A DNA stretch of 62,911 bases, the filler included, from Intoshia linei (taxonomy: Eukaryota > Animalia > Orthonectida): NCBI GenBank assembly GCA_001642005.1. It is 5 parts of 5 records of this genome, joined end to end, with 100 filler letters (N's around TTAATTAATTAA, not from the genome) between each part and the next. Parts side by side here need not be neighbours in the genome. Positions count along the whole stretch, not along the records: positions 45,900 to 57,327 come from LWCA01001190.1; 4 more parts are not named here. One strand, written 5' to 3'. Below the pieces are notes generated by a model that saw only the letters and a list, made by a program, of their open reading frames with translations, was not told the origin of the DNA and did no database searches. The translations under genes were made by a program, and so were the position numbers. This document shows, in pieces, positions 15,401-57,327 of the stretch; position 1 is the stretch's first letter, and every line of letters starts with the position of its first letter.

Positions 15401-18400
15401 TATGATAAATGAACTGATCATGAGAAATTAACTTGAAAGTACATTAATTTTTATGTATGCATCTTATAATGATACATAATTTTAAATATTTTAAAAATTT
15501 TTGACTAATAGACTATTTAAAATTCATTGATACATTTCGACAATATAATAAAAAATAATATTGTCAATTTATGATTATTGATATTACATAATTAATTTGT
15601 CCTAAAGTACAAATTAAAATTTTTAAATATTTAATTTGACATTTAAAGTAGACTTTCGTAACATTCTAGTTTCCAGTTCGCTTAAATTAATAAAAAATAT
15701 ATTGATTTGAAATTAATTTTCCACGTTCCTCCTTTATCTATTTTATCCTTCTCTATGATTTGAGATAATATTATTATATTTATTAATTTATGTTAATAAG
15801 AAATCAAAATTACCAAAACTACTTATTTTTCACTTTTGAGACCGAACATTTTATATAATAAATGATACAACGTTATCAATGTATCTCAAAAGATTTTTAA
15901 ATTTTATTTCACGTCCAACCAGATCAATCCCATTTTATTGTGTTTTAAGAAAATTAAATTTTATGTGAATATTACATTGTAAACCTAACCCAGTGATGGC
16001 AAAAATATGACACTCTTGTCACGCACAGGAATTCTTCCTGACACGCTGGTATTAAGCTTATTTGAAATGTTTAATAATGGCGTGGAAAAATAAACTCTAA
16101 AGTGTATTGTAAATGCACAAAAAAAATCTTTACTCAAAACATTGTAATAAAACTAATAGTTTTAATTAATTTAGAATAATTTTAATTCATAAAATTAAGT
16201 AAGAAACAATAATAATAGAATAAGTGTACAAATAATGTTAAAATTGTAATCATAAATAAATAAATCATGCAAATATATGAAAAATCTATAAAAAAAAAAA
16301 TTTGTAAAAAATTGTTATAAAAATAAAAATATATATTATAACGCTGGCACCTTCCACAATTGGGCCCACATAATTGACACTTTGATCATTATGCCATATT
16401 AATTGATTATGTCACCCTTGTTGTGTAATAATTAATGATGCGACGATTCCGATGCGATTCCAAATACTTTTGAATCATACTATTTAGTGAGTTTTATTTG
16501 TTTTAATTAGAATTAGTCTAAATGAATAAACATAGTAAAACAAACTGGCCTATAAATAAAATTGTGCAGAAAAATTTTCGCTTGAATCTTATAAAATCCT
16601 ATCCATTATAAATTAGTATTATAAAACAAATTTGTTCCGATTTTGTCACCTTCAACGTGAATAGACGAGCCTACATTGTTAAGTGTTTTAATTTTTTTTA
16701 CAAATAAAAAAATTGCCATTAATTTGAAAACCATAAATTACTGAATATATTACAAGACATAATTAAGGATACTGTGTATTCTACCGTATCTGCTATATTT
16801 CCTGCATTATAACGTGCCCTGCATGTGTAAATACCAGAATTTGATCCTTTGGTTGAACTGATTAGCAAATTATCAATATTAACCCTAATTAATATTTTAA
16901 TTGATATGCTTATAATATTTTAATTAACATCAAGTTGAATTTTGGGGGAATATATCGTGTAAATGCTGACATAATTAAAGTTTAATTATAATTAATACAT
17001 TCCATATTTATATATAATTTGATTTAATTTAATATTATTAAAACTTAAAAAAGTTTTTAAATCAATATTCGACCCTAATTATTTGAGTAACTACACCATG
17101 ATAGTCTCCAAATTTTTCAGTCTCATCATCGTCTTACGAAAATTAATCAGATCGTTTTAAAAATGCGAAAATGTTGTTCCTTGGTAATAGTAAGTATACC
17201 TGTTATTTTCTTGAGATGTATCTATTTTTTCAAATTGATGGTACCACTCAATATTTATTTTACTGGACAGTGTTTTAAATGAACATTTAATGGTAGTAGG
17301 CTCATTTCTTTTGGCATATATTAAAGGTTCAAAATTTTCTATATCAAGCATAGGATACTTTTCATCTACAAATATTATTAAATGAAATACTAAACATTAA
17401 AAAAGAAAATAGGATATTTTTATAGGAAAATTTCTTTATAAAATTTTACAAGTATATGAATTATTTTTTATATAAAACTTTTTTAGTTTTAAAATTTGAA
17501 TTAACTTGCCCTCTTTTGCGAAAACTATTGAATTACTATTTTTAATTTTTGGTCACCGATAAAAATCGATAAATTTAATATTTTTAATTGCTCAGGGATG
17601 ACAAAAAAATCATTCTGATACTTTCGAACAGTAATTGATGACATGATTTGGAATATATGATAAAGATTAGACTTATAAGTACACATTTTTAAACTTAATG
17701 AAGTATTCGAGGTCAATGAATCATAAACAAATTTTAAAGCAGTCGAACAAATAAAATAACAGCCATCTGTTTATATTATTGTAATAATTTGATATGCATT
17801 AGTGAATAATTAGTAATTTCATTTAATATATATATGCAAATTTGAATTAGGAATTATATTTGAATACACTGTTACAATTCATGATGTCATGTCAAACAAA
17901 TGGATGAATCGAAATTGATATTAATTATTTGGTTTTAATTTTGAAAAAGGGTGCTAATGAAAGTACATTGAAACGTTTTGCTGTCTGTGAAATATCAGTA
18001 CATCAATCTTATTTATCAATGTCAGTGTTACATTCCATATCCAAACTGCAATACGAGAACCTATCTGTAAATAAGAAAATTTTAATGAATTCAGAATGAG
18101 AAAATTGCGAAATTAGATATTACCGTTGACCGAAACTAATTAAAGTACCTTTAAATGCAATAGTGTAGTAACCAGATATTTTGGTGAATCCCATAACATT
18201 TACTCCTCTACATTCATAAACTCCTGAAACTTCATTATTGTATTTTCCGTTTTTTTGATAAATAATTAACTTCTCTTTATTTAATCGGGGTTTCCTAATT
18301 AAATTATATAATCATTCATTTAAATTTACTTTTTTCCATTAAAAAACCACATAATTTTGGGCTTTGGGTTCCCCCCGATAATGCACTGAAGAATAATGTC

Positions 18401-19022
18401 ATTGTTTCCATGAAGTGAAAACAATGCATAGCTAGTGTTTCTCTGGTCCATATATATACTATCTTTAACATCGTTTAAATTCAATGTGGCTTTAGTTGAA
18501 ATCCCTATATATAATATTAATTTTTTAAAATTAAATCTCTTACACAAAATATTTAGTTTTACACCTCTACTCATAATTGGTCCTGATGATGAAGCAGACA
18601 TGTTGTGTGCCATGCATCTAAAAATACCAGCATCTTTATTTCGATCGACGTGAGATATATGTAAATTAGATTCTAAGCAATATCTTCTGCTGTTGATTTT
18701 GTCTTTTTTTTTTAATATTGATGCGTTAATTTGTTTTCCGTTCATTGTCCACCAAAATCGAATATTTATAGGACTAGACGCCCGACAATGTAAGGTTACT
18801 GATTGACCCTCGTGGATTGTTTGAGGAGATGGCGTTTCCACAAAATACAATGAGTGTTGTTGTGCATTGATGGGGGTGGCTCGTTGAATTACAGAACCTA
18901 TATAATTAGTTATATATAGTAAAATATGAACCGTTATTTTCATTAATAATAGCAAATAAACATAAAATCAACCAATTAACACTGTAATTAGCAATAAAAA
19001 TATAATATAGAATATATTTCAT
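9402..19022 (-). CDS. PTK7: PTK7/off-track-like receptor tyrosine pseudokinase (multiple Ig domains, TM, kinase), many exons
   Basis: ATG at 19022 with a hydrophobic leader. Ig domains read 'LYFVETPSPQTIHEGQSVTLHC..DAGIFRCMAHN', 'DSGVYVCTIENIAG', 'HEGRYRC' and 'DGGMYTCQAS'. The TM reads 'HIIILSVVGSIIYIIILIFFAVFC'. The kinase has GSGKYG, HENIVKVIGCC and HGDIAARN, DFG is replaced by 'SFI' (AKLSFIG), and FRWWSPE follows. This architecture and DFG loss are typical of PTK7. Confidence 0.88.
10470..11606 (+). mobile_element. hAT (Buster/Charlie-type) element in a PTK7 intron with a transposase remnant
   Basis: TIRs CAGGAGTGTCA / TGACACCCCTG with a perfect 8-bp TSD ATCTAGAC (10462-10469, 11607-11614). 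The internal ZBED5/SCAND3-like remnant reads 'QYSDKFLNYGF..MKPGRL..SYEIAPLISKNGKSHTIAEKLIK'. A second CAGTG.. end at about 10924 suggests nesting. Confidence 0.85.
12066..12554. mobile_element. hAT-type MITE
   Basis: TIRs TAGTAATGCGAC / GTCGCATCACTA with an 8-bp TSD ATTATAAT (12058-12065, 12555-12562). A partial second copy lies at about 16433-16512. Confidence 0.8.
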
Positions 19023-29896: not shown

Positions 29897-30424
29897 AGAA
29901 TGAAAGCAGCTTTTACTTGAATGCCATTTCGTTGACGAGGCTTATTGAATATGCGTCGCATAGCAGTTTTAAATAAAAAATAGAAAGTCAATTATATCAA
30001 TTCTCTGCAGTTTATCTGAGAAAAAAATTTTATGTGCCACTTTACAAAGTAATGAAAGAGTTAGCTATGATAGATTTTGAGATGAATTAAAGGTAATATT
30101 TATTTGTTTTTCAAATAAATGTTTATATTATTTTTATAGAAGGAATTGAATACCTTTGACAACAAATGATTTTTCAATCAATGAAGCCAGTATAATTAAA
30201 CTGGCTGTAGATACTGAATGTCTTATTCTATGTGAAAAAATTTTGTAACATTTGTAATGCATATACTTTTGAGTGAATTATTGAACCATTCTACAGTTTT
30301 ACTAATCAAAGTTTTTTGAACTTGAAAAAAATTCACAAAGAACCAGATGGTATGAACAGGGGCGTCAACAAAAAGAAAAGGCGAATTTACGTTAAACGGA
30401 TAATGCATTACATTTTTCCACGCA

Positions 30425-30750
30425 ATGATTATTAAGGTAACTTTATTGGACGGTATCGTCAGAATTCTAGTCGATACTGGGTCACAAAAAAGTTTTTGCA
30501 GTATCAAATTTTGCAATCAATTACAGGCTAAACTAGTCACTAAACGATCTTTCGGTGGTGAATTTGGTGGTCCCATGTATTCTGACTCATGTTTGATTTT
30601 ATCCTTAAATTATAGCAATGTCTCATTGGAATTGAAATTTTATGTTTTGCCTCAATGGCGTTATGATTTTGATATCATTTGTGGCATGGAGTTTTTATTT
30701 AATTATAGAGCAGTATTAAATGTTGCAGAAAATTGTCTATTTTCAATCTT
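30425..30750 (+). mobile_element. Retroelement (Ty3/Gypsy-type) aspartic protease fragment
   Basis: 'RILVDTGSQKSF..FYVLPQWRYDFDIICGMEFL'. Confidence 0.85.
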
Positions 30751-30759
30751 ACTTACAGT

Positions 30760-31700
30760 CAAACGAGCAGTCCGTAATACTATATAATAGTAATGGGCTA
30801 CAAAACGAGGCTGATTGTATTTCTGCAATCTGTAACGTCCTACCAAAATTTAAACGCAGGTTGCAGTGATTGGAAGATAGGGCTAGTAATATGTCAACCT
30901 TAGCATTGAATAATCTAACAACGCCTATTTGTGATCTAATTGCTATGATTAACGATAACAACGACAACATGGGGGCCATTGATACGACAGCTATATTACA
31001 AGAATGTACAAGAGCAACACATAAGGTGTGGGTGCTAGAACACGTCGCGTATGATCTAAATGTCGATACTTTCTTACACTCAATGGACGTCAATGACGTA
31101 GTAGTTGCATATCTGACTTACAATTATATGCCGGATATACTTCTTGCATCAAAAGCCTTCGCTGAAGGCACTAACATGTCAGCAAAAATAATTGCTGAGA
31201 AAAACTGTATTGAATTTAACTTCTCGGACGGATTGGAGAAAGGATATGTATCCAAATTTGACGACTATAAGAGCTGGTTGACATTCTTACCAGTTATGAC
31301 AACAAAGTTATATCAATATAATATTGAAATAAAACGGATGTGTGGTTCAGAGATCATGTTAGAAATAACAAAGGTGATGCTCCACACGCCGATCAGCAAT
31401 CCAACAATAACACGACCACTTTATGCACGCGACGAGTACATAATCCTTACGATCAAAATAGATTTGCAGGGTAACAATATGCAGTCTGTAGTAATTAGAT
31501 GCGGCTTAACAGAATACAGAAGGTATTATAGTGCTGTCGAAGCACATTACCTGGCTAACAAAAGCGATGACGATAACAAACTAGTATCCACTGCTATGCG
31601 TTTAGAAAGAACAGCGAACACGAGATTTTTGATCGCGAGACAGAGTTTTTCATTGTCTACGTGAGTTCAATCGCATAACACAATTCGTCAAGAAGTTGAC
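30760..31700 (+). pseudogene. Endogenous viral element: alpha-like (Martellivirales; virga/nege/endorna-like) replicase methyltransferase region
   Basis: Intronless 264-aa ORF 30870-31664, visibly GC-richer than its flanks. 'LQEC....VWVLEHVAYDLNVDTFLHSMD...VVAYLTYNYMPDILL..IEFNFSDGLEKGYVSKFDDYKSWL..YNIEI...IMLEITK' matches the Vmethyltransf pattern 'QxC..A..HS.YD......M.......F.P.LL..I.F.F.D....Y.H....' in order. The frame continues upstream of an in-frame TGA at 30867. Confidence 0.75.
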
Positions 31701-31949: not shown

Positions 31950-33783
31950 AACAAAATGATTATCTGTTGAAAGCGACCTAACGCTAAAATTATGCCGTAA
32001 AGTATGTTACCAATATGAAATAGTGACCGATGCAAAATGTCATCTTGTAGAAAAATAACCGGTAGTTTGTAATATTCAACAAAAAGTATGACCTGGTTTG
32101 TTATCATTGTGGAAAATCTTATGATAACACACATTATAAAATATGCAAAGCAACAAATGCGTAGTGCATGAATTGTGGTAAAAAAGGTCACTTTAAAAAT
32201 TTTTGCAAAAATCCTATTAGTAAAAATCTCAAGTATAAAAGGATCAGTGCTATATATGATGAAGGTTCTTCTAAATTTATTACTATTTATGTAAATAAAC
32301 AACCAATTAAATTTTTAATTGATACAGGTAGTTGTGTTTCCATTATTCCCCATACCACTATAAGGGAAGATTTCAATAGGGATCATAATCATATAACTCT
32401 AACATCTTTTAGTGGACACCGGATCAAACCAATGTTCTGTTTCACCGGACTTGTCGAATATAACGAATTACAATGCTCACATGAATTCTAAATAGTACAG
32501 AATATTTCTTTAGCAATTCTTGGATTAGATTTGATATATAAATTAAGGTTAAATTTAAATAAAATTTTGAAATTATGTGCATCCAATGAACAAGAATTAA
32601 ATCAGGTTAACAATATAAATTCTAAAACGTTTCCTACTAGTTTCGTAGAATTACCCAAAATCAATAATTTTAAATTATATATTAAATTAAAAGATAATTT
32701 TATTCCAACAATTCCTCGAGTAAGTCGTACACCTTCCATTCTATATACAGTAGTAAGGTGAAAGATAAATTACATGAGTTAGTCAAAGTGGCATAATATA
32801 ACCAATAGATCGTAGTGATTGGACCAGTTCCATTGTAGTAGCTTCAAAGAAAAATGATGATATAAGAGTATGTGAGAAATTTAAATAAAAACATTGAAAT
32901 TGATACTTATCCCTTACCGTTAATAGAGAACTTCTCTACTATATTATATTATAAATAATAATATATATTACTCTTTATACTCCAAATGCTCTGCAGTTAA
33001 AATGCTTACTAATCCTACCACACCTTTAACTATAAAATTTTTAAAAAAAGTGCTTTCAAGAGAAGGTATCCCTTTCAAAATTATATCAGATAATGGACCA
33101 CAATTTGCATCAACATAATTTAAACAATTTTTACAATCTATGGATATTCAAAATTGTTTTACTGCTAATTATCATCCACAAAGTAACGGGCAAGTGAAAA
33201 ATTTTAATAAAACTTTAAAGCAAAGATTGAAATTGCTGTTCAAGAGGGTATGAGCATTAGTGAAGCAGTTACAAAAATTCTAGGCAATTATCGAATGTCA
33301 CCACATACTATTACTGGGTACCCACCTATAGAACTACTACATGGAACAGCTATTAACATTAATTTAAGTGTAGGTAATGTCCCAATCAATAAAACCAATA
33401 AAATGAAGAAATTCGACGTAATGTGAAAAAAATCATAACAGAATGATAGGCAATGATAAAACCTGGAGAAAGAAAACTCTTAAAATCGGGGATCGGGTAA
33501 GGATTGCGATTGAAAGTGTTTAAAAGGTTATCTGATGTCTGAACCACATAAAGTAATTGAAATTGTAGCAGAAAATACTTACAGATTAGATGATAATCTT
33601 ATATGGAATGAATCAAACTTGACTAGATCAAATCTGTGTACAGATGAAAAACAAGATGATTATCCCTATATGGTACAAGAGCATTTATTAGCTGATGAAC
33701 ATATTGATGCTGAAACAACTGGTCGACCAAAAAGATTGATTCAACTTTCTAGCAAATACAAGGATTTCGTGATATCGAACTAA
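31950..33783 (+). mobile_element. Degenerate, internally deleted Ty3/Gypsy element (gag CCHC, protease, RT start, integrase)
   Basis: CYHCGK..H..C, CMNCGKKGHFKNFC, FLIDTGS, WTSSIVV..DIRVC, 'SREGIPFKIISDNGPQF', 'TANYHPQSNGQV', and the tail 'GRPKRLIQLSSKYKDF'. Confidence 0.92.
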
Positions 33784-37242: not shown

Positions 37243-38348
37243 AATGGTAAACTCGGGAATGTCAGATACAACATTGGTGGCAGAAGTGCTTGGTAAACCC
37301 AACATATTGTTATCAAGTGATGGTGAATTATTGATGAACGTGAAAGATTGGATTGATAAATTTGAAAATTTTCACTTTTGCATTATGAGGATATAAAAGA
37401 GAATTGAAAAGTAGTTTTATTGAAAATATGCATCGGTGACGAGGCGGAAAGACGCTTAAAACGATTTAAAAAATATGATGCAATAATATCAGAGATTAGT
37501 CATGGCAGATCAAAAATGTATTGAGAAAAAGATATGAATTTTTATCCGTGAACCAAGAACCAAATGAAAGATGTGTACTTTCGTTACTCGACTAATCAAG
37601 GCTTATAATGAAACTGAATATACAGATGATTCTATAAGGTTAGATGTATTTATTAAAGGATATTATTGTAATACACTAAAATCCAAATTGTTAATTGAAG
37701 AAAAGCTGACCTGGGATCGTGCAAGAAAAATTTGTTTAAATTATGAAACAATTAACAAATTGCAAGTGAATTATATATCTAAAAATAAATTTGTAGAAAA
37801 ACTATGTTTTCGTTGTAAATCTAAATCTCATTTGGCATCATTTACTAAATGTCCTGCTAGAAATATTAAATGTTTTAAATGTAGCAGAATTGGTCATTTT
37901 AGCAAATGTTGCAACCCTGATCTACAGAAAAAGAAATCAATTGGTACATTTAATTTCATAAAATTTATAGATATAAAAATAAAACAATTGTAATTAACAT
38001 TGACGGTAGAGATATTGAAATAATCGTAGATACGAAAAGCGAAGTGAGTTTACTACCAATAAGTTTTTTAAATTCTCAGCCTATTATTAATAGTAATTGT
38101 AAATCGATATCTTTTAGCGGTCATACAATATGCCAACGAGGAGCATGGACTGCAAAATGTAACTACCGAAATCGAACAGTGACACAACGATTTGAAATTG
38201 TAGATGGTTGCAAACCCATCATGGGATTAAAATTAATAAATCATTTAAAAATTGAATTGAATTCCTTATTTTGTAGAAATATCAATAGTATCTCAAAAAT
38301 TTCCACATTTTCAATGCAAATTAAATTAAATCAAAAATTGACAAAAAA
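37243..38348 (+). mobile_element. Degenerate Ty3/Gypsy gag-protease
   Basis: 'VKDWIDKFENF', CFRCKSKSH..C, CFKCSRIGHFSKCC, 'IIVDTKSEVSLL..KPIMGL'. Confidence 0.88.
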
Positions 38349-39062
38349 ATGATTAAAGGAAACAGAAAAATACTGCTTGTGCTAGATAATACATCCGTGC
38401 ATTACGTAGATAACAATTATAATAACATAGAGCTTCATTATTTTCCACCAAATTGAACATCAAAAATCCAACCTATAGACCAAAGAATTATTCATTCTTT
38501 TAAATCTAATTATAGAAAATTTTTTTTAAGAAATCTGAGTATGATGAATGGAAGTGATGAAATATTTTTTATGGACCAAATAAAGAAATTCAAATTGTTA
38601 AATGTTCTTCCACTTATAATTGAATCATGGAAGACTGTATCAGTTGATACAATAATCAATTGTTTTAGTCATGCATATACAAACTGGGAATGTTAAAATG
38701 CGAATATATCGATGAAAAATGCAATTGTAGATAAAAATTTGACTGAAGTCAATGATGACACAGCATTCTATGATATTCTACCTATATGTGATGACAATTG
38801 TTGTCAAGATGACATATTTTTGGAAAATATTTTTATCAACAACGATTCTGATAACATAGAGGAATTGGAAAATGAAACAAATAAAACTGAATTAATTGGT
38901 TTTTCGGATGCTCTTTACCATCTTAAAAAAGTAGAACTCTTTTTTCTTCAATCAAATGGTAAAGATGTTGAACAAGTCAGTACCTTAAGAAAAAATCTAT
39001 TTGAAATAAAAAAGAAGTCAGTTAAAATCACTGATTATTTCATGAAAAATATTAACAATTAA
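38349..39062 (+). mobile_element. Tigger/pogo DDE transposase remnant abutting the Gypsy copy
   Basis: 'RKILLVLDNTSVH..IELHYFPPN*TSKIQPIDQRIIHSFKSNYR..ESWKTVSVDTIINCF..KITDYF'. Confidence 0.93.
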
Positions 39063-41533: not shown

Positions 41534-43739
41534 GTGTAATAGTTCATCAGCTTCAACCGACATTTTAGCACATTGATAATTTGATTTGTGTGCAATTCTT
41601 TCACCTTCAATTTGAGCCAATATTTTTTTTTTTTTTTCACCAGTTTTCTGAACGACCATGGTTTCAGCAATTACCTCGGCTAAAAGTTTGTTTTGTTTTT
41701 CTAATTCTATTAAACTGTCAATTTTTTCCATTTCCAATTTTACATTGGATTCTTCTTCAACTAATTCGGCTGCATGTCTATATTTTTAATTATATTTTTA
41801 TTGTTTTAATTTACTTTGCATTTTCTTCTTGCGATTTAGTCGAAATTGCAATTGCTAACTGAATAGACTTTTGTAAAGCTTCTTTAGTGTGCTCTTCAAC
41901 TGGTAATATAGATCTGACATCAACTCCTGTAATGACCAAGTTGTTTTTTCCAAAAAATAAGGTTTTATTCTTAATTCCATTCTTGTCTACTCCAAACACT
42001 GAGTTTTTTATTATATTTATAGAGTTCTAAATAAAAATTAAGTACATTTTCTAAATAGTGAAGGACAATTAAAATAATATTTAAAATGGGTTATGGACAG
42101 TGTCCAGTGGACACATTCAAAATTATCATAATTTATAATTAATCTCGTATTGATGATTACTTTATGAAAATCTTCAAATTTGATGGATGCAATGGCTGAT
42201 CTAATCAAAGATGCCAATTTGTTGCAAGAATCACCAATAAAGTCTGGTACAGCAAATAGTTTTTTAATTTCACTTTCTGGACTATTTCTGGTAACCTGAA
42301 AATGCCTATAAAACATTTGTAATTTAAAATTTTATACTTTTATCTTATTAAAAGTAAAACCATTTGTATGCTGTAGAAACAGCAAGTCTTGCATGGTCAG
42401 AAGTTTCGACTATTATTTTATCTCTAAAAAAGTCTGGCCCAAGTTTCAGTGATATATAAAAATTTTTCTTGACAACTTTTGGTATACCTCCAGATAAACA
42501 AATCAATGTAAACTCTTCTTGTGGACACAATTTTACTAAATTTAAATTATATACATTTGTATGTTTTGTAAATTTGAATTTATACATTTATATAGAAATG
42601 TTAAAAATTTATTTATTTATATAAATCATTACCCAAATTTGGTCCAAATACAATTCTAAATACTAATTAAAAATTATAGACATTTTATAATAATTGTATT
42701 CTAAATTATAAATATTAATGATTTTATTAAAAATATTTAAAATAACATTTTGGAGTAGTACCTAGATTTTGCTGAAGTTTTTTCAAAGATTTGAACCACA
42801 TGCCCTTGCAAAACTTGATATGTTATCATTTCATGTTGTTTACTAAATGATTTCTTTAGAATAAATTCATTGGGACACTCCATTTCCACATCACTGACAG
42901 AATCAATAAAGTCTTTCTGAGAACCAATATCTAACGCATCCTAATCGGTGTATATGACTCATAAATAATAATTTTGATGGGATTTTATTATTTTTTAGTA
43001 TTTATTTTTTTAGTATTTTATTTTTCAGTATTTAATTACCGACACTGTCAGTATTTTAATAAAAAATTTTCAGTAATTAAATTATTTGTATTCAATTATA
43101 CGTTGTAATAATTGTATGTCAGTATATACTGCATATTCAAGGATATACTGACAGTTTATTTAAAGTACTGAAAAAATAATTTCTTTATTGCCCTTTTAAT
43201 TTAAATACCGACAATCAATTATTTCATAATTATTAAGTAATTAAATACTGACACATATAATACGTCCCGATAAATTATTCATAATTATAATTATACAATT
43301 TTTAAATTTAAAAATAAAAATCTGAGTGTGTAACCATTTATTGAGAATTATTCTAAAATATTAATTCTAACTCAGTTTTTTCCGGTGCAGATTTTAATTT
43401 TGAATTTTTCAAGCAGGTTTTAAAATTTAAAAATTTTCTTAGAATAACTTTAGGGTTTAATTATAATTGCATTTTTTTTACTTCATTTTTAAGAGTATAA
43501 AAATACATAATGTATATACATAAATATAAGTATACAATTATGCAATTCTACATTTATGTCTATAATTTATAAAAAATAGGTCTTAAAATAAAAAAATCCA
43601 TTCTCTGCAGAAAAATCTGCTGATGTACGAAGTTCATAACATTAATCTAGTAATTCTATAAGTTCAAAACTGATACTAGATCCATTAAGGTTTTTGTTCG
43701 TCCTGTATTTCTTTTTGGAGGGTCGTTCGAGAAACCTGC
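41534..43739 (-). CDS. MVP: Major vault protein, partial (R8-R9 loop, R9, shoulder, start of cap helix)
   Basis: 'ITYQVLQGHVVQIF..SRIVFGPNL', 'EEFTLICLSGGIPK..LGPDFFRDKIIVETSDHARL', 'LFAVPDFIGDSCNKLASLIRSAIASIKFEDFHK', 'NNLVITGVDVRSILPVEEHTKEALQKSIQLAIAISTKSQE'. Confidence 0.93.
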
Positions 43740-45899: not shown

Positions 45900-46709
45900 T
45901 TATAGATCTTAATTCGTTTTCCGTAACAACATTATCTTTTTCTTTTCTTCCCTCTTTCCTATTAATAATATTTAAATTTATATAATTTTAAAATGTACAT
46001 GTATGTCACTGTATGAACAATTGGCAGAATTATCTTCTATTTTAACAATCGTTTTTCGAATGCAGTCGTTTGATAGATTGGTGAGTTCTGATAGTTCGTT
46101 AGTATTTTTCATTTTATATAATCTTTTAATTGTTTCAAATGTATTTTTATCTACCACTTTTCTAATATTTTCATGCATAATACCGATAACACAATTAACT
46201 TTATCAATTAAACTTAAACTTTCTTTTATGAATCATTGCAACATAAAAAATGAAATAATATTTGAAAAAGTATTGCTCAAAATAATGTACTTCAGTATTT
46301 TTTAAAAAAGTTTTATATTTATAAAAACAAAATTTATATTCATGACAAACTCTGTATATAAACAAATAAATCAATATGAACTTCTATAAAAATAATAATT
46401 TTTATAAATTTATATGAACTTTAAGCATCTCTAAAACAATAAGTAAATGATCTAGAATTGAATTTAAAAATATAAGATAAATAACAAAACATGGGGATGA
46501 ACACCATACCACACAAACCAATATTACGTTATCCTATGATAACATTCCACCAAATAAAGTTATGTTTTAATTTTTGTATGGGATCTTTAAAAATGCAAGC
46601 GTCTCCGCAAATTTATGTCTAAATTAATTATTTTTTTTACATTGTTATTTTTGACTAATTACTCCATTTTTGCCGATACAGGACTTAATTTATAAAATTT
46701 GGTCACACC

Positions 46710-48381
46710 CCTAGTGCAGCTATATCACTGAAACCGGCTATAAACTTCATATAAAAATTGTACATCCCAATGAATCGCCTAAGGCGTTTGATACTTTTAG
46801 GATACATCATTTCATTAATTGAATCTACTTTGGATGCATCAGGTCGAATACAATCACAATTAACTACATGTCCAAGAATTTTTAATTGTTTCTTAGCAAT
46901 AACACACTTTTTAGGTTTTACTGTTAACCACGTTTTTTTAGAAATTCAAGAACGTTAATTAAATCTTTCTCATGTTCAATTTCATTGTATGAGGCTATAA
47001 TAATATCGTCTAAGTATACAATTACATTCAAATGATCTTTCAAAAGACGATCCTTAATTCTTTGACACGTCGCCGGGGCATTCGATAATCCCTGTGGCAT
47101 TACAGTATATTGATATAATTTATTACCAAAACTTGTTCTAAATGCGGTTTTCCAGCGATCAGAGTGTGCTAAGGGTATCTGCCAATAACCGTTGGTGAGA
47201 TCTAAGTACGAAAATACCTTTCGACCTTCCATAAAGTTTAAACACGTCTTTAAATTTGGCGCAGAGTATCTATCCGGAATAGTTAATTGTTTAAATACTT
47301 CTCGTGTTTTGATTTAAGATTAATGGTATGTTTTCCCGTGTTACATCTACCAGGAATATCACATATTACATCAGAATAACTATTTAATATATTATAATCA
47401 CAATAATTGTCCAATATTCGACAAATTTTAATTTTTAGTACTGCACGGCATCCTAAAATATTATCGGTATTCGTTATATAACACGGTAATGTATATCCAT
47501 TAGTTAATTTTAATTGAACTACGCCATAATTTTTTAGATACGACCCGTCAGCGGAAAAAAGTACAGTATTACCGGTTTTAGAAATTAAAAATAGGCTATA
47601 AAATTTTTTATTAATACAATTGACCTGTGACCCAGTGTCAATTATAAATTTTAATGTTACCGTTTTTCCATCATTATCAAATGCATCAACATAATGATCT
47701 ATTTGACTTGTTTTGTTATCATATATTGCACGAATGTTAGGTTTGATATCTTTAGTTTTGCAGAACCTTGATATATTTCCAGACTTACCGCAATTATAAC
47801 AAGATACCATTCAATGTTCAGGCATAGAATGTTTTGACGATAAAAGTAAAATTACTTTAGATTGCTTGAAACGACTTACCACCTCTTGAATTTTGATAAT
47901 TGAAATTGATTCATCAAGAGTAGGGTTCCCATCATCAATGAGTAAACGTTGACAGACGTTGAGGACAGGTTAAAAAAATGTGATCTCTAATAGCTTCACA
48001 TGCACCTGTGAAATCACACCTGTTTGCTTGTAAGGTCAACCAATGGGCATACTCTTCAATTGATTGATTTGATTTCTGGCGCATTTGAAATAAAATGGCT
48101 CTCTCTTCCAAAATATTAACTGATCGCCAACTTAAAACTGTCTTTTTAATTTTTGCATATGTTGTCTTTGTATCAAATTCAAGTTTTTGACGAGCCTCTT
48201 TTCCGATTAAGATAATAATAGATTTGAATTCATCAATAGCTTCATCTGGATTAATAATTTTCTCCAATTTAATATAATCTTCGAATTCTGAAATCCACGT
48301 TTTAACATCCAAGGTATACTGCCCATTATTCATTAGCGGTAGAGGACATTCCTTCCTGTATAAATTTTTCAAATCGTCCAT
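46710..48381 (-). mobile_element. Degenerate Ty3/Gypsy gag-protease-RT
   Basis: 'VKTWISEFEDY', CYNCGKSGNISRFC, FIIDTGS, 'LDLTNGYWQIPL..KTAF..MPQGLSNAPAT..VYLDDII'. Confidence 0.95.
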
Positions 48382-48748
48382 AATTTAAAATTAAAATGTA
48401 ATGTTAGATATAAAGTATTGCTGTAATATAAGTTTTTTTTTTAAAATATTTCAATTTTAAGATGATTTACAATTTATTTACAACCAATATCAACTATAGT
48501 TTAATTTATTTAAACTTTACATAATTCTATGGATTATTACACTGATATTCCCAGTTTTGATTATATAACGTTGAAATGTACAAATTACGTTCCTCCATGA
48601 AAAAACAAAAATTTTTGATAAAAATTAATACTCAAATTTTCAAACAAATTAAAATTTAAGTGGTATCCATATACATAATATTCTGATGTTTATTATTATG
48701 TTAAAACTCAATTTTTTAATTTTATGTCAATTATTATTTTTTATCATA

Positions 48749-51700
48749 ATGAATACTGTCCCAATACAATTATGCAAGATAATTCAAATCTCATGGAAAT
48801 TTTGTGTCATGAAAATAAAATCAAAACTTTTAACGACCCTTGATCTATGAAATCAGAAACTAATTGTAATTATAATTATTAGATATTTTTAATTTAGGAT
48901 CAAAAAAAATTTTATCCTCATAATCACATTTGTTGTGATTCCGATCACAGTTTATTTATTGCTACCGTATTATTTCAATTCCTTTAAAAGTATACAAGAC
49001 ATTATAAATGCAAAGATATTATGGTATATGTATTGGGTTGGATTGGGAATTTTGTCATCAGTTGGATTTGGTTTTGGATTGCATACTTTTGTTCTTTACC
49101 TGGTATGTGTATTTTATTCTCTAAATTATGTGGTATAATTGTAATCGATAAAAATTGTCGATACCCTTTCAAATTTATCTTTGAATGAATATGATTTTGT
49201 TTAAGCCATATTTATTTATTCATTTGTTAATCAGTGGTCAATAAACTTTGACACGATGCCGCGCAAACTAGAAAATATTCTACGGGTCTGATGAAAATTT
49301 TATTCAAATAATATTAATGATTTTTTAACATTTTTAAAATCTTAAATACATTCCACGGACAAGTCGTAGAATGTGTAAAACTTTCATTTAATTAAGATTT
49401 TTTTTGAACCAAACTTTAAGGGCAAGTCGTAGAATGTGTAAGTCTCATTTATCCAGATTTACCAATATTTTTTCGAAAAATCCATTTTTACACCATCTTA
49501 TGAGAAAGAATCGTTGAATCCAACCATTTAACAAAAAATCCAATTTTATCAATCTTTAATCTTTAAATTCAATTATATCTTTCCCATGTGTACAAATGGT
49601 TGCCTATCTGAGCGACTTGATGTCATCCTTCATGTTGGAATGACCTAGAAACAGGTCATATACTGCTGTGAGTGACATAATTATCGGATTAGCTGCTATA
49701 ATCGAAAGTCATATATGTCCAGTATTTAAGGTTTCAATCTTGTCTAAGGGCAGTGTTACATTACGAACTCTTAAGCTATCCTTAACTCTTTCGATTGTAT
49801 CCCCCAATTGAGAACCCCTGTCTTAGATTATGCCAGTAGCAGTGAATTCCATCTAAGTTGAACTTCTTTTCATCGCTCCAAATAATTTTGGACCAATCCG
49901 TCGATTCTAATATTTTTTTCAGCGAAAAGAATTCTGCTTTGTTTGTGTTTTTTTAATAATCTAGGTATTTTTTTAATTCTGGAAAATAAAAATAAATCGG
50001 AATGTTGGAGTGTTCTTTGAATGGAGCGAATAGATATATCATTATCCATTTTAATAGATATCTGAGTTGCAGTACATTTTTCGCGTGTAGCAAGTCCTAA
50101 AAGCTTCCTTTCATCTCGTGGTGATATACATTTAGGCCTCCCACTTGATTTCTTTTTACCGTATCCTCAGCGTTTTTCAGCCTGAGTAAATGTTAAATAC
50201 TGCACATTACGGATCACCACAGATACATCCAATACGGACTTAATACTTATAGTGTATGCCGAGGAAATGTTCATACGTGAAGACAATGATCATTTATCGA
50301 TGTTGTACTTAGAATGAAAAGACACATATTTCTTTTGAATCCTATACACTATATCCAACGGACACTTATAAGATATTTCCAAAACACTTTTAACTGTCAC
50401 AGAATCGTTAAGGACACTATAGTTTATTTTAAAATTGGGATGACTTTTGACAAAAGGAATCTGTAATGCAACACCGACAAAGACCATAGACGAAATTTTT
50501 CCAATTAATGCACAGAAAAACAGAGCACCCGGATGTGACATCATAGCTTCAAAGAAATACATACCACCAGCAACTGCTCTTTTAGGATGCATCAGGAAAC
50601 TAGTAACATTACGTACATAATCTTTCGAGCCATAATAACAATACTAATAGTAGCTTCCACCCTGAAATACTAAATAAGCACCATAAATAATTTAAATATA
50701 CATTATAAATATGTCTTGTAGAAATGTTATTAACTATTATTTATATTTAGGGACCTTATATAATAAATGTGACATTAGCTGCCTATGAATGTAATTCTGT
50801 GAATTTTTTGGAACCTCCTTATCCGAACGAGTAATTTTTAATTATTTTTCAAATTATATAATTATTTAGAATTATATGCCCGTTTGTTGTGAATAAAGAT
50901 ATCTATATTACATTTTGGCAGATATTATGGAAAGTGAGCCTCGAGTCGTTATTTTGGGTAAATTAATTTGATATTAAATATTTATAATTGTAGGGTGTTG
51001 GGACTGCTATAGGAGAACTACCACCTTATTTCATGGCTCGCGCAGCCCGATTTGCTGGCGGTGAAAGTGAAGAATTAATTTTCAAAAAAAACATGGTAAT
51101 TAATTCTTAAAATAAATTCATTAATTTAAATTAACTTAGAAATGGATGGATAAAATGAAATATAATGTGCATTATTTTGTTAAAAATATGGGATTTCCTG
51201 CAATTTTTTTATGTGCCTCAGTAATTTTTAATAAATCTAAAAATGTACATTGTTTTAAATTGTATTTAGATTCCAAACCCTTTATTTGATTTAGCTGGTG
51301 TCACCTGTGGACATTTTTTGGTTTCATTTAAAACCTTCTTTGTTGCGACTTTATTAGGAAAAGCTATTGTTAAAACTTTTATTCAAGTAAATCAGTTTAT
51401 ATTTAATAATTATGAATTAGGAAACATTTGTTATTGTTTTATTTAGTGATAAACATTTAAACTCACTGGTTAATTTAATTAGGTAATTTTATTGATATTA
51501 TGTTTATTTGTTTTTTATTTTATTTATAGTAAAATACCTTTATATGGGGAAAGATTGAAAAAACCCGTTTTACACTATCTCAACATCCAGAAATTAAAAT
51601 TACATAACAAATCTAATGTGGTCGAGGTACTTATTTTATCTTTCAACTAATTTTTAAATTCCTATAGACTACGACAATATCTTTGATATTGAATATTGTG

Positions 51701-51790
51701 TTTGGAGCCATGATTCTTTATTTTATCGTGTCTATTGTCAATGCTTTGGCCACCAGAAATTTAAACAAAAAAAAAAAGAAAGATATGTAG
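48749..51790 (+). CDS. VMP1: Vacuole membrane protein 1 (TMEM49), multi-exon; true start uncertain
   Basis: '[24 protein letters not shown]|[19 protein letters not shown]', '[20 protein letters not shown]', '[21 protein letters not shown]'. Confidence 0.94.
49820..50175 (-). mobile_element. Tc1/Tc3-like transposase remnant in a VMP1 intron
   Basis: '[18 protein letters not shown]..' HTH region and '[19 protein letters not shown]'. Confidence 0.85.
50200..50650 (-). pseudogene. Endogenous viral element: virga/tobamo-like superfamily 1 RNA helicase fragment
   Basis: '[63 protein letters not shown]' is colinear with Viral_helicase1 'NVRTVDSFLM..FIDEALMxHxG..GDxxQIPFI.R..F..SYRCPxDV...Y'. The motif II and III aspartates are substituted. 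Confidence 0.85.
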
Positions 51791-52195
51791 CAATAATTAA
51801 TTTTTCAAATATAATTTTGAAATTTTTTTAATTAATTTATTAATAATTTATGAAGCGACTTGCTTATTTATCTTTTTCATTCATAAATAGTGTCGAATGC
51901 ACGGTTTACTTTATTAGATCAGTGTAAATAAACGTGTAATGTGGCGAAGTGATATTTGATATGTAATGATGCGAATTTGTCAAGCTTCATTAATTTGAAA
52001 TTTGACTACGATATCAATGTCGCCTCACATGGTTGCATAATTGTCATTTCAAAATGCATATGTGTAAAAAATTAATGTTTATTTGCGCTTGCTTAGTGAA
52101 CAAATAGACTTATTGCCATGTTACGAGTCGTGTTTTATTTATTAGTCCATATTTGAGATTCCGCTGAGATTTTATAAATATTTTAAAAAATTTTA

Positions 52196-55100
52196 ATGTC
52201 ACCGGTTTGCAAAGAAGACACTTATCGTGCATTGGAATTGCTGGAGTCGTACTATCGTCAATTGCACAACACAGATGATGCAGATTTGAAGGAAGCAATC
52301 GAAACAGTTATCCGCACCTTTAAAAGTGAGTTATTTAAAACTTTGTTGGAAATTCAAGAATATTATGAAAAAACGTTAATGAACAAGGATATGTCAAAGG
52401 AAGAAAAAACAATAGAATCCATGAAACTTTTGGATAAACATTGTACAAACAGTGAAACATATGAAACATGTCAAAAAGAAAATTCGTATGGCAGGGCTGG
52501 CGAACCTATAAACAATGTAAGTAATGGGGTTAATCGTGATACACACAGACAGGTAGATTACGAACAATGGAAAGTCGTTAACGTAACTTTACGACGCTCG
52601 GAAACGGGTTTTGGTTTTACAATTGCTGGCGGGGTGGATAGTATGCATATCCCGCATGATAGTGGAATATTTGTGGCTAGTCTCATTGAAGGAGGAGCTG
52701 CAATGCAAGATGGCCGATTACAAGTAAATGACGTTATTATGCATGTTAACAATACCAATTTGAATGAAATCACTCATGAAATTGCCGTTGAGGCTCTCAG
52801 AAATGCAGGAAATCAGATTAAATTAAAAGTTCGCCGTCGCATCGAATATCCTCAAACTGTTAAAATTTGCCTGTACAGAGGGAAAATGAATCTTGGATTC
52901 AGTATAGCCGGAGGAAGTGATCAAGAGCATTATCCCGGTGATCCATCTATATACATTACCAAAATAATCCCCAACGGCGTGGCTGAATTGGATAATAGAC
53001 TAGCTGTCAATGATTGTATAACTTCAGTCAATAATATAGATTTAACCAATGTTACTCACCGAGAATCCATTGAAGCTTTGCGGTCTTCCAATATTGATCC
53101 CATCATTTTATATGTTAAAAAATATTCTCAAGATGGATATAAAAATGTAGATGACGCTGATGACAATCATATCGAAAATAATGTTTTTTCTAATGAATCT
53201 CAAAATGTGTATTCTGGAAACGATTCACAAATTGCTTCAAAATATTCCTTTAATGATCAAAATGAATCGATTGAGCCCATGCAATTCAGTGATGCTAATT
53301 ATGATACCCAACAGGTTTTATCGACTAGATCTGAACAGTATTTTACCAAAGAAATTGAAAATAATGACAGTCCAGATAAAATCGCTAGATCTGATTCTAT
53401 TACAGTTAATATGGACAATGACATTTCAAGGTGATTTAATATTCAGTGTTTTTCAAAAAATTTACATTTATAATTTCCGTCAATTTTACACAAATAATCT
53501 TTCAAAACGAATTGAGCTTTAATTTTACGGAAACCCACAATAGGGTTTTAATGTTATCGGTGTATTTTTAACAATTCTTAACAATCTATACATATCTTAT
53601 TATTGGTTAAATTTCCGAACTGATTTTAGCATATACACTTTGATAACTTATTTTTTATTTATTTTTTGCAGTAATGTATCGTTTTGAAGGTGAATAAGTT
53701 AAATACAATGTATGTTCAAAATTTTAATGTTAGAAATTAAAATTCAAATCGATAAGCTTTTTATTTGTTATACATTTGATGTAGTAACTCCTAATCGACA
53801 TAATTTTAAGTGGTTTTAAATAATTCAAGTAATATTACTGCATCACTTCACAAAAATGTTTTTATAATTTAATACTTCCACAATGTTTAATATCCTTACT
53901 TATTGGGACATAAAACGGTTTGTTTGTGTGTTATCGTTTATTTCAATAACTACGAGTCTTAGAATTATATAAAGTCTACATTTCTATTACAGTTTTTTAC
54001 GGGTAAAAGTAAGATAAATTTCAACTTCCGAAAATCACATATTACTGGTCAAAAACCCCAATTATCCTTTTTTTTAATATCAAACGAGTTCGAGAATTTA
54101 AAAAAATATACACTGATACAGAATTTAAATTTAAATTTAAAAATTTAGTAATTTCTTGTTTAGACATTTTTAAAAAATTATAAAGTGTTAAACGATTCAT
54201 AAACTATAATTATATTTATAATCCGTGGTAACTATAAAATTATTTTTTTAACCCTGATACTCCCAGTGTAACCATATGGTCACACATTACAATTATAAAA
54301 ACACATATCAAATTGAAACAGAGTTAATTAGTATATTATATAATATTCGAGTTTATTAATTATGGTTTTCACCGATTAGCCTCCTGTGTCACTGAAAGTG
54401 GGCCAAAATGATTTTTCAAAGCAAAAAAAAATTCACTGAAAATTTTTTTTATATTTTTCTTGTTAAAGTTGTGATAACTGAATTTAATGAATATCATATG
54501 ATGAATTCATGTATTGGCTACAATTTGATGAAATAATTAGGTATATTGACATGCGGTTTTATATATACACGCTTTTATTTGCCTTATTCTCCCAATGTGA
54601 ACATATGGAATGTGAAATAACTCCATAACTACAATTGGTAATTACCTAAAATTATATATGGTGAAAAATAGGCAAGTATGTATTAACTTCCCAAATTTTT
54701 GGAACAATCGAAGCCAAAAAATTTGTCTGGGAGTTTTAGGGTAATAGTAGTAATAATAGCTCCAATAGTATCTTTAATTTGTTTACGTCTCTTTCTTGTA
54801 AGCTTAAATTGAAGGTAAGGTGAAATTTCTTATTGGATTTATTGAAATAAAAACTTTAATATGATGGGACAATTCAAAAAATCTTTGAAGTAGTTAACCA
54901 AATGACAACCAATTGATTACGAGAGTTTCTCATTTCTTTGCATAACATGAAAAATACGGGCATTTAATGAACGAGATTTAATCAAATTTACAATGCTTAC
55001 TACTTCTTCTAGTATGATTTTTAAATATCAAATATAATTATGCATTTAACTTATATTACAAAAAAAATAATTATATTTTTCATAAAATATTTCTCGCACT

Positions 55101-56206
55101 TCCAGGAAAATTCTACGGACCCAAGGGTCCGCAAACCCCAGTTTAAGAAACACTGCTATGTATAATTTTGATTGTTAAAAATTAGTAATATTCGTGATGA
55201 CTTTTAAATTGTATTAATTAAATTAAAGTGGACACCAGGGTCGATATGAACCAATTTGACAATTTATAGGATAATATTACTATTATTTTCATTTGTTTGT
55301 ATTATTATTTTGAAATATTGAATAAAGTGTAAATTTTAGATCACCAAGAAAAGTAGTATTGCACCGTAAGTCGGACGAGCCAAGTTTAGGGTTTAATATA
55401 GTTGGTGGTGACAATAATAGTGGAATTTTTATATCATATATCACTGTCGGTGGTCTAGCTGCACAAAATGGAGGAATTTACAAAGGAGACACAATTTTAT
55501 CCGTATATTAATGCTTAACCTTTTAAATAGTAATATATCATAGGTTAATGGAACAGATTTAACTGAGGTAAATCATGAGCAAGCAGTTCTGATCTTAAAA
55601 AATTGTGATGGTTCAAATATTGAATTTATACTTGAATATTCCCCTGAAGGTATAATTAATTTTTATTAATGTTACACAATACACCTAATCAATGTAATGT
55701 ATTGATTTAATTGTAAATCTTGGTGCACGTTGTATATAATTTAACTCTATTTGTAGAATTGAAACGATACAATACTTCCATTTTTGAAAACAATATTTTC
55801 ATTAACCAAAATATTCGTCTTCCCAGTACAACTGAATCTATTGTTTCTAGTAAAATGATTAAAAAGCAAATTTTATATGTTAGGTAGTTTTATCTTTGAC
55901 GTGTGTTAATTTCTTAAATTCAATAGAACTCAATTCGATTATGATCCTAGTAAAGATTCAGGATTGCCTGGCCGTGGTTTGCAGTTTTCGTATGGAAATA
56001 TTTTGAAAGTTATCAATTCGGGAGATGAAGAATGGTGGAAAGCTAAACTTTTATTTGTAGAAAACGAACAAATTGGTATCATACCTGGTATCAAAAGGTA
56101 CAAGGTAGATTTATAAACATTTTAATTTTGATTTAGAGTTATTAAACGCGAAAAACTACGTCTTAGAAATGTCAAATTCAACAATAGTACTCAATCTAAT
56201 ATTAAG
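52196..56206 (+). CDS. dlg1: Discs large MAGUK (L27-PDZ1-PDZ2-PDZ3-SH3); 3' HOOK/GUK part missing before the gap
   Basis: The L27 reads '[34 protein letters not shown]'. The PDZs read 'GFGFTIAGG', 'LGFSIAGG' and 'LGFNIVGG'. The SH3 reads '[34 protein letters not shown]'. Confidence 0.96.
53920..54125 (+). repeat. Dispersed repeat family copy in a Dlg intron
   Basis: It is the reverse complement of about 6180-6370 ('tttcaataactac.agtcttagaatt.tataaagtc..catt'). Confidence 0.7.
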
Positions 56207-57327
56207 GTTTATCATCATGAAATTATTTTAAAAATGTATTGTTTATGATACAATGTCTTTCAGGTCATATGACTGTTATTTATGGAAATTATAGTAATTA
56301 ATAACTCTTGTTTGTTTTTGGAAATTTTTATTTTGAAATACTCAATCAATATAAAAATATGAGTTTAGACAGGTACAGGGATTCCCAGTGGAAACTTCCC
56401 ACACTTTTTTCACGTCGGAGCAGTAAATGATTCTAAAAGTTACCGCGGACTATTACTAGGCAAAATTTAAAAAATTTTGATAAAAAAAGTAGTCCATTGA
56501 TTTTTAATTAGTAAAGGATTTTTTCGCGAACCGGCATTTGGGAAACGCTGGACAAGTAATTTTATTCTATTCCAAAATTTATCATAAATTTTGAAATGGA
56601 CTTATTTTAATGCATTATATTTTTTAGGTGATATGTTAAAGTACAAATGTATTTATTTAAATCGATATTATTTTAAAAAATGTGTTAATTAATTGATTCA
56701 ATACAAAATATTGTACATTTTAAATAATACAGACTACAGTACAGACATACAGTATGTATATTAGGGCTGTTCATTTTTTACAAAATTTTTGATTCGAAAA
56801 AAATCCACCTCCTACCTTGAAGAGGGTACTTTAAAACCCATAAAAATAAAATTTTAGAAAAAATGACCATATAAATGTGTATTTTGGAATTTTTAAGTTT
56901 TAGTGCACTTTTTCCCCTTTTTCTTAATCCCATGTTGAAATTCAGTTATTAACGTTTTAAACACATTTTAATGAAAAAAAGTAATATGAACTCTCTAGAA
57001 GCCGAGCTAAAAAATTGAACTGTGTTTGTTCTAATCGATTAATTTTTATAATTTTTGTATGACGATATGTAAAATGTTATGCAGATTCGAGGCAATTGAG
57101 TGTAGGTTTTTTTTTATTATTAGTTTCTTCGTTTTAATTAATTAAAATCAGGAAAAAAAACGAGAATACTTTATCTTGAAAAAATTACGATAAATCATGG
57201 AAACAATAGTTTTTAAAATTTTAAATATTTATTTTGTTTCAATGTCAACAATATTACGGTCGACAAATTTTTATACATATCCCAGAGATCTCTCACAAAT
57301 TTCATTTGTAACATCCACATTGATAGG

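Follow-up and report, generated by a model that had tools for sequence, protein, structure and literature searches.

A probable relic of a nege-like viral helicase in an intron of a putative VTT-domain gene of Intoshia linei

We analyzed a window of 62,911 nucleotides (filler included) from the orthonectid Intoshia linei (GenBank assembly GCA_001642005.1), which is made of five parts of five records joined end to end with 100 filler letters between each part and the next. All positions given here count along this window. The locus of interest lies in the part from 45,900 to 57,327 (LWCA01001190.1), where a host gene on the plus strand, which has a candidate VTT domain and which we call VMP1-like, carries an intron of 1648 nt at 49103-50750. 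The intron is flanked by an upstream exon at 48893-49102, whose 5' limit is provisional, and a downstream exon at 50751-50830. On its minus strand there is a piece of apparent viral origin at 50167-50643, which the open frame, the Pfam, PDB, HMMER and tblastn matches and an alignment identify as a truncated helicase-domain fragment of a nege-like replicase, that is, an endogenous viral element (EVE). At the 3' end of the viral piece, and on the same strand, follows an internal piece of a multi-copy Tc1/mariner transposon at 49819-50166. An initial annotation had placed colinear superfamily 1 (SF1) helicase motifs on the minus strand of this intron, abutting a Tc1 remnant of the same orientation, and had argued for a true integration of a virga- or tobamo-like virus. 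All of this stood up in our analysis, except for the closer affiliation of the virus.

The intron itself is defined by spliced contigs. Four sequencing runs were compared as contigs: X1 is DNA and is possibly the sample behind the assembly itself, and X2, X3 and X4 come from one 2024 study and were taken as RNA because spliced forms are present in them. The joint 49101->50750 (cut +1), which has GT..AG ends, is found in X2, X3 and X4 at depths of 154, 55 and 113, so that the intron is confirmed at its previously proposed boundaries in three of the four runs. Contigs from X2-X4 have 0 differences over 48900-49101 of the upstream exon, and the downstream exon is likewise given by spliced contigs of these runs. 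The median Intoshia intron is 57 bp according to the available portion of PMC6543705; the intron at 49103-50750 is about 29 times that length, and it is filled with viral and transposon debris.

The viral piece is a single minus-strand frame of 158 codons with one internal TGA (50287-50289) and no frameshift. Its larger part is a stop-to-stop open reading frame (ORF) of 117 codons at 50290-50643 with degenerate motifs II, III and IV, and all four motifs quoted in the initial annotation (34 residues) fall within this 117-aa ORF. After the internal stop there are 40 more codons, ending in YLTFTQAEK, before a closing TGA at 50167-50169, past which the reading frame runs in phase into the Tc1-like stretch. 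Homology is detectable from about 50170 to 50634 (tblastn placement 50625-50170), slightly beyond the 50200-50650 first proposed. The GC content of the piece is 34.8%, versus about 26.7-26.8% for the window. By itself the open frame is unremarkable: when the intron was shuffled 2000 times, 38 of the shuffled sequences contained a frame of at least 117 aa, and given this result we treat the frame as weak evidence. A word-limited search for homologous proteins of near length returned no match to the viral piece, which is a weak negative.

The Pfam profile Viral_helicase1 (PF01443) scores 20.9 bits (E 3.6e-4) against the ORF alone, just under the gathering cutoff of 21. When the piece is read through the internal stop with an X, the score is 25.2 bits (E 1.7e-5), which reaches the cutoff, and the match runs from position 41 to 173 of the 228 in the profile. 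Residues 212-360 of the replicase helicase of tomato mosaic virus (PDB 3vkw) align colinearly with the piece (E 3.7e-5). A full HMMER search against 1.84 billion representative proteins gave 145 matches at E<=1e-3, viral SF1 helicases among them, with 24 at E<=1e-10 and the best at E 5.8e-29 with 42% identity over 155 aa, so the homology is far beyond chance. This best match is Aphis glycines nege-like virus 1, where the matching segment (aa 1699-1853 of the 2667-aa protein P0002) falls in the helicase domain at 1646-1911. All five of the top matches that we tested are polyproteins of 2184-2667 aa with both Viral_helicase1 and RdRP_2, and one of the five additionally has Vmethyltransf and FtsJ. 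The named relatives are Aphis glycines nege-like virus 1, Wuhan house centipede virus 1, Aphis gossypii nege-like virus and Soybean thrips nege-like virus 1; the remaining relatives are mostly unnamed transcriptome contigs.

Nege-like replicases of arthropod-associated viruses are thus nearest, with E-values of 1e-29 to 1e-16, whereas tobamoviruses reach only E 3.7e-5. We therefore regard the piece as nege-like within Martellivirales, and the tobamovirus likeness as real but remote: the earlier label "Virga/tobamo-like" is right at the level of the order and too specific below it. Two nege-like replicases (that of Aphis glycines nege-like virus 1, UTQ79653.1, and that of Wuhan house centipede virus 1, YP_009342435.1) share a colinear helicase core with the piece at 36-42% identity, and the blocks MSHPGA, LQIPFV, SY(R/K)CPLDI and YLTFTQ(S/A)EK are common to both sides. 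The tomato mosaic virus helicase belongs to the same Pfam family and is far more distant (E 3.7e-5 versus 5.8e-29). One long tblastn/BLASTP alignment, to P0064, seemed to pass from the helicase on into the Tc1 part and was rejected, because P0064 is an ordinary viral polyprotein, the extension has low identity, and the GYGKKK with which it starts is common to other Tc1 copies. A 722-aa protein from outside the window (P0032) is matched 11 times by residues 8-41 of the viral piece, with a period of 55 residues; it resembles a tandemly repeated helicase fragment of unknown origin, and Pfam gives only spurious matches to it.

For comparison of the motifs, the piece was aligned with seven relatives. 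Motif I (Walker A, G-x-G-K-T/S), which reads GPGTGKT in the relatives, has no counterpart in the piece, where homology begins at profile position 41. Motifs V and VI (TVHE.QG and VALTRH) are missing as well, cut off at the Tc1 junction directly after YLTFTQAEK. In motif II, IDEALMSHPGA in the relatives, the ten corresponding residues of the piece have FE for DE, and in motif III, LGDxLQIPFV in the relatives and also ten residues in the piece, the GD of GDxxQ has become GV. Motif IV is SYKCPLDI in the piece and SYRCPLDI in the relatives, and the last block is YLTFTQAEK in the piece and YLTFTQSEK in the relatives. Of the 22 columns that at least 85% of 70 relatives conserve, 16 are kept in the piece, with both catalytic aspartates lost, and another Intoshia helicase-like protein keeps 19 of 21 in the same comparison. 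Unlike the nege-like replicases, the piece has no motif I, V or VI, no catalytic aspartate, no methyltransferase and no RNA-dependent RNA polymerase (RdRp), and it has an internal stop. Because motifs I, V and VI are missing and both catalytic aspartates are lost, it appears to be a dead fragment that cannot be a working helicase; to judge by its residues, it derives from the Viral_helicase1 family and is no working member of it. Going by the conserved residues that are gone and by the one stop, neutral divergence since insertion may be very roughly 5-15%, which is an inference and no measured value.

The continuity of the piece with host DNA is given by contigs from two studies. A DNA contig of X1 (50054-51088) spans the Tc1 piece, the viral piece and three host exons, and a contig of X2, from the second study, spans 50119-50710 with 0 differences. 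In X1 the viral piece has an even depth of 13.8, which is also that of the neighboring exons, and no variant of the piece was found at 85% likeness, so the viral piece is single-copy. A run labelled organism B has identical sequence at the viral piece. The piece is truly integrated in host DNA. It is homologous to a protein of RNA viruses that have no DNA stage and is continuous with host DNA, and these are two of the features expected of a non-retroviral endogenous viral element (nrEVE), also called a non-retroviral integrated RNA virus sequence (NIRVS).

The Tc1 piece is 349 bp long, is cut at both ends, and matches the viral piece in orientation and frame. It covers the helix-turn-helix (HTH) region that binds DNA, and the catalytic region as far as its beginning. 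Positions 49870-50166 match residues 49-133 of the Tc3 transposase DNA-binding domain (PDB 1u78, E 1.3e-6), with the paired HTH present, and the Pfam profiles HTH_Tnp_Tc3_2 (E 4.4e-4) and HTH_32 match below cutoff. No Pfam match, to a DDE/D catalytic domain or otherwise, was obtained for 49782-49952. No credible terminal inverted repeat was found for the Tc1 piece, of which only an internal part is left. A 20-nt inverted pair at 49715/50188 was rejected as the transposon ends because one of its arms is inside the conserved viral YLTFTQ coding block. Several variant contigs of 49819-50167 were seen, with loose ends at 49819 and 50164/50167 that lead into other sequence; therefore the transposon is multi-copy, and its other copies run on differently. 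The junction with the viral piece, at the 3' end of the latter, is at 50164-50168.

It had also been proposed initially that pre-mRNA of the host gene would carry antisense viral sequence. This is true by position, and low-depth contigs over the intron are present in all three runs with spliced forms (in X2, depth 2.9-11 versus 154 on the exons). Within the antisense viral piece we found a plus-strand cryptic splice site, a GTAAC donor used with the normal acceptor before 50751, which defines a cryptic GT..AG intron at 50603-50750. The joint 50602->50751, with the donor GTAACA directly after CTA, occurs in one contig each of X3 (depth 4.6) and X4 (depth 9.6), and its depth is about 8% of that of the main joint. 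These two runs are from one study, and in each the joint has a 30-letter side, as expected of a k=31 unitig at a branch and one letter under the bridging rule of 31. Since this plus-strand splice is inside the piece, plus-strand RNA does carry antisense viral sequence. The plus-strand frame in phase with the donor (50444-50620) contains no ATG and has a stop before it, so the minor spliced form would add no coding sequence. Contigs cannot show transcript starts, and holes in their cover prove nothing.

Based on these results, we consider it very probable that the piece is a dead, truncated helicase fragment of a nege-like (Martellivirales) replicase, that it is integrated in an intron of 1648 nt within a putative VTT-domain (VMP1-like) gene of Intoshia linei, and that it likely has no function of its own. 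Sequence of an RNA virus would have been copied into DNA, presumably by the reverse transcriptase of a retroelement, and inserted in the germline into an intron that was probably short. A Tc1 copy may then have landed in or beside the viral insert, and a later deletion or end-joining event would have removed the helicase's 3' portion together with the transposon's 5' portion, which would account for the sharp junction at 50164-50168. Decay since that time would have been roughly neutral, and the sole present effects would be an intron enlarged 29-fold and a minor aberrant transcript. Several points weigh against this account. There is no retroelement at either junction, and the reverse-transcription step is only presumed. 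With one internal stop in 158 codons, stops are fewer than base composition predicts at equilibrium (about 0.08 per codon); decay is thus only partial, and the element would be either not very old or under some constraint. There is also RNA over the piece, with a defined splice in two contigs, so the piece could conceivably act as an alternative 5' exon or give rise to small RNAs.

The last of these points can be read as exonization of the viral and Tc1 pieces, in which transcription would begin within the intron and the viral piece would be the 5' exon, joined to the host exon at 50751, to give a regulated non-coding or N-terminally truncated isoform. The joint is present in two of the three RNA-like runs, these two runs (X3 and X4) have depths of 4.6 and 9.6 on the viral piece but 0 over 50648-50723, and all of X2-X4 have depth 0 at 49128-49203, so cover is not continuous from the upstream exon. 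Yet each joint is a single contig with its 30-letter side, both are from one study, the starts that such an isoform needs are not visible in contigs, the in-phase frame follows a stop and lacks an ATG, and the depth is about 8% of the main joint; we regard exonization as improbable. A question of origin is raised by two helicase-like proteins of Intoshia annotated outside the window, OAF63765.1 (P0274, 258 aa) and OAF63809.1 (P0052, 65 aa), both labelled "(+)RNA virus helicase C-terminal domain-containing protein" in UniRef. They come from the same host as the window piece and have the same kind of RNA-virus origin, and they may be either integrated copies or viral contigs. OAF63765.1 keeps motif I, the DE and the GD and is on a 1.4-kb contig, whereas the window copy is dead and is anchored by the host intron around it. 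The window piece could be a decayed duplicate of an older viral insert, the one annotated as OAF63765.1/OAF63809.1, and not a separate integration, as OAF63765.1 is its nearest row in a quick tree (43 rows, 42 of 140 eligible relatives), where the two are sisters with a Shimodaira-Hasegawa-like approximate likelihood ratio test (SH-aLRT) value of 92, and they align with E 7e-26. We think a duplication doubtful, given that the two are only 44% identical over 94 aa and that neutral divergence of this size should give many stops, where there is one. Both sequences are also from an AT-rich genome and the window branch is long (1.69), so that attraction may have drawn them together; in addition, the branch carries no star.

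The initial annotation also saw a possible source of silencing RNA here; in this reading the antisense intronic copy would be a template for antiviral or regulatory small RNAs, either Piwi-interacting RNAs (piRNAs) or small interfering RNAs (siRNAs). Host plus-strand transcripts do contain antisense viral sequence, the window is rich in transposon pieces, and EVE-derived small RNAs are reported in insects in the available parts of PMC12810003 and PMC13577284. But there is no long inverted repeat, the longest arms in 48000-52000 being 27-28 nt with 71-81% complementarity. The piece and the other known Intoshia helicase copy share only 44% protein identity, too little for sense-antisense pairing, and with the nearest known virus the protein identity is no more than 42%, so no known target would be matched at the nucleotide level. 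In the literature searched we found no statement on a Piwi/Argonaute pathway in Intoshia. A template for small RNAs therefore seems to us very improbable. It is a longer shot still that orthonectids were infected by a nege-like lineage of their own and keep several fossils of it, and that this antisense copy, spliced via a virus-derived donor, serves against such viruses as a template for small RNAs or for regulation. As for a chimeric assembly or a contaminating exogenous virus, some viral-like pieces of this species are poorly anchored, the two annotated helicase-like proteins being on contigs of only 1419 and 1654 bp. At this locus, contigs from two studies tie the piece to its Tc1 neighbor, to the intron and to the exons, the piece is present in the DNA run (possibly the assembly's own sample), and it has an internal stop and lacks essential motifs, so we find an artifact of either kind scarcely credible.

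Aside from the helicase piece, tblastn of the 145 relatives against the window found only one other locus, which is methyltransferase-like, and a Pfam search of all 85 window ORFs of at least 70 aa found no RdRp. The second locus, at 30870-31661 on the plus strand, is a stop-free frame of 264 codons that resembles the methyltransferase domain of hepe-virga/kita-like replicases. Its match to Pfam Vmethyltransf is 25.7 bits (E 7.3e-6), below the cutoff of 27. Its best tblastn matches, E 1.5e-7 and 1.9e-7, fall in the N-terminal parts of polyproteins of lower rank, and the nege-like top matches are not among them. A word-limited search for longer proteins like this ORF gave no match, again a weak negative. 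The frame is located between retroviral-type protease pieces at 30404-30784 and 32165-32488 on the same strand. By its sequence, we take it for a probable second viral fossil of independent origin, which may have been captured along with a long terminal repeat (LTR) element.

Orthonectids are among the most reduced animals known, and the known hosts of Martellivirales-like viruses are mostly arthropods and plants. Taken together, the anchored fossil, the two annotated helicase-like proteins and the methyltransferase-like ORF 19 kb off indicate that Martellivirales-like viruses reached the germline of the orthonectid lineage. The locus also shows the growth of an intron to 1.65 kb through viral and transposon debris, with the debris supplying a cryptic splice site. 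Endogenous elements of virga/nege-like viruses with helicase, methyltransferase and RdRp pieces are described in Bombus and as widespread in insects in the available text of PMC12922265, which cites Kondo et al. (2019, Virus Res 262:37) for such elements in insects. As far as that text goes, the insect elements and the window piece are alike in being Martellivirales replicase fragments carried by animal genomes, in most cases broken and frequently close to transposon pieces. The window piece differs from them in its host, an orthonectid and thus a spiralian, in its length of 477 nt, in its position in an intron of a conserved gene, and in having a DNA transposon beside it instead of an LTR element. 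For Intoshia, the accessible part of Pinzon et al. (2019, PMC6396948) reports viral-family RdRP genes in the proteome. In the literature searched, which did not include the 2016 Current Biology genome paper, we found nothing that joins Intoshia with endogenous viral elements or describes this locus. We also found no orthonectid virus there, the matches to Orthonectida with virus or transposable being off-topic by title or abstract. The piece belongs to a well-known kind of viral fossil, here in an unusual host, and is otherwise an ordinary relic that opens no new mechanism.

The same intron contains a high-copy short repeat at 49346-49491, where X1 depth peaks at 281 versus 7.5-20 beside it and many contigs have loose ends. 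Within it, a 22-nt direct repeat occurs at 49357 and 49420, 63 nt apart. This repeat is possibly a miniature transposon. Rfam and tandem-repeat searches found nothing else of note in the intron. The Intoshia genome is known for its compactness, and the window is nonetheless rich in transposons: pieces of LTR retroelements (RVT_1, RT_RNaseH, rve) and a DDE_1 transposase piece are located at 46706-48384 on the minus strand and at 396-1548 and 37568-39059 on the plus strand. One of these retroelement or transposase pieces is within 500 bp upstream of the host exon at 48893.

Downstream of the large intron, the host gene continues on the plus strand with an intron of 39 nt at 50831-50869 (joint 50830->50870), an exon at 50870-50956, an intron of 36 nt at 50957-50992 (joint 50956->50993), and an exon from 50993 to 51095 or beyond, all given by spliced contigs of X2-X4. 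The two short introns contrast with the debris-filled 1648-nt intron of the same gene. The gene may be VMP1, a name that fits known motifs and that no tool confirmed. An exon ORF at 51270-51446 has a weak match to Pfam VTT (PF09335), with 21.3 bits against a cutoff of 33.9 (E 4.1e-4), and searches with the remaining exon ORFs, as well as Atlas and PDB searches, gave no match bearing on VMP1. The next gene on the plus strand is Discs-large at 52187-53431, whose 415-aa ORF is 100% identical to "Disks large, partial [Intoshia linei]" and comprises L27 plus PDZ. Other host genes in the window are a receptor tyrosine kinase with Ig domains at 9405-18967 and a major vault protein at 41814-42587, both on the minus strand.

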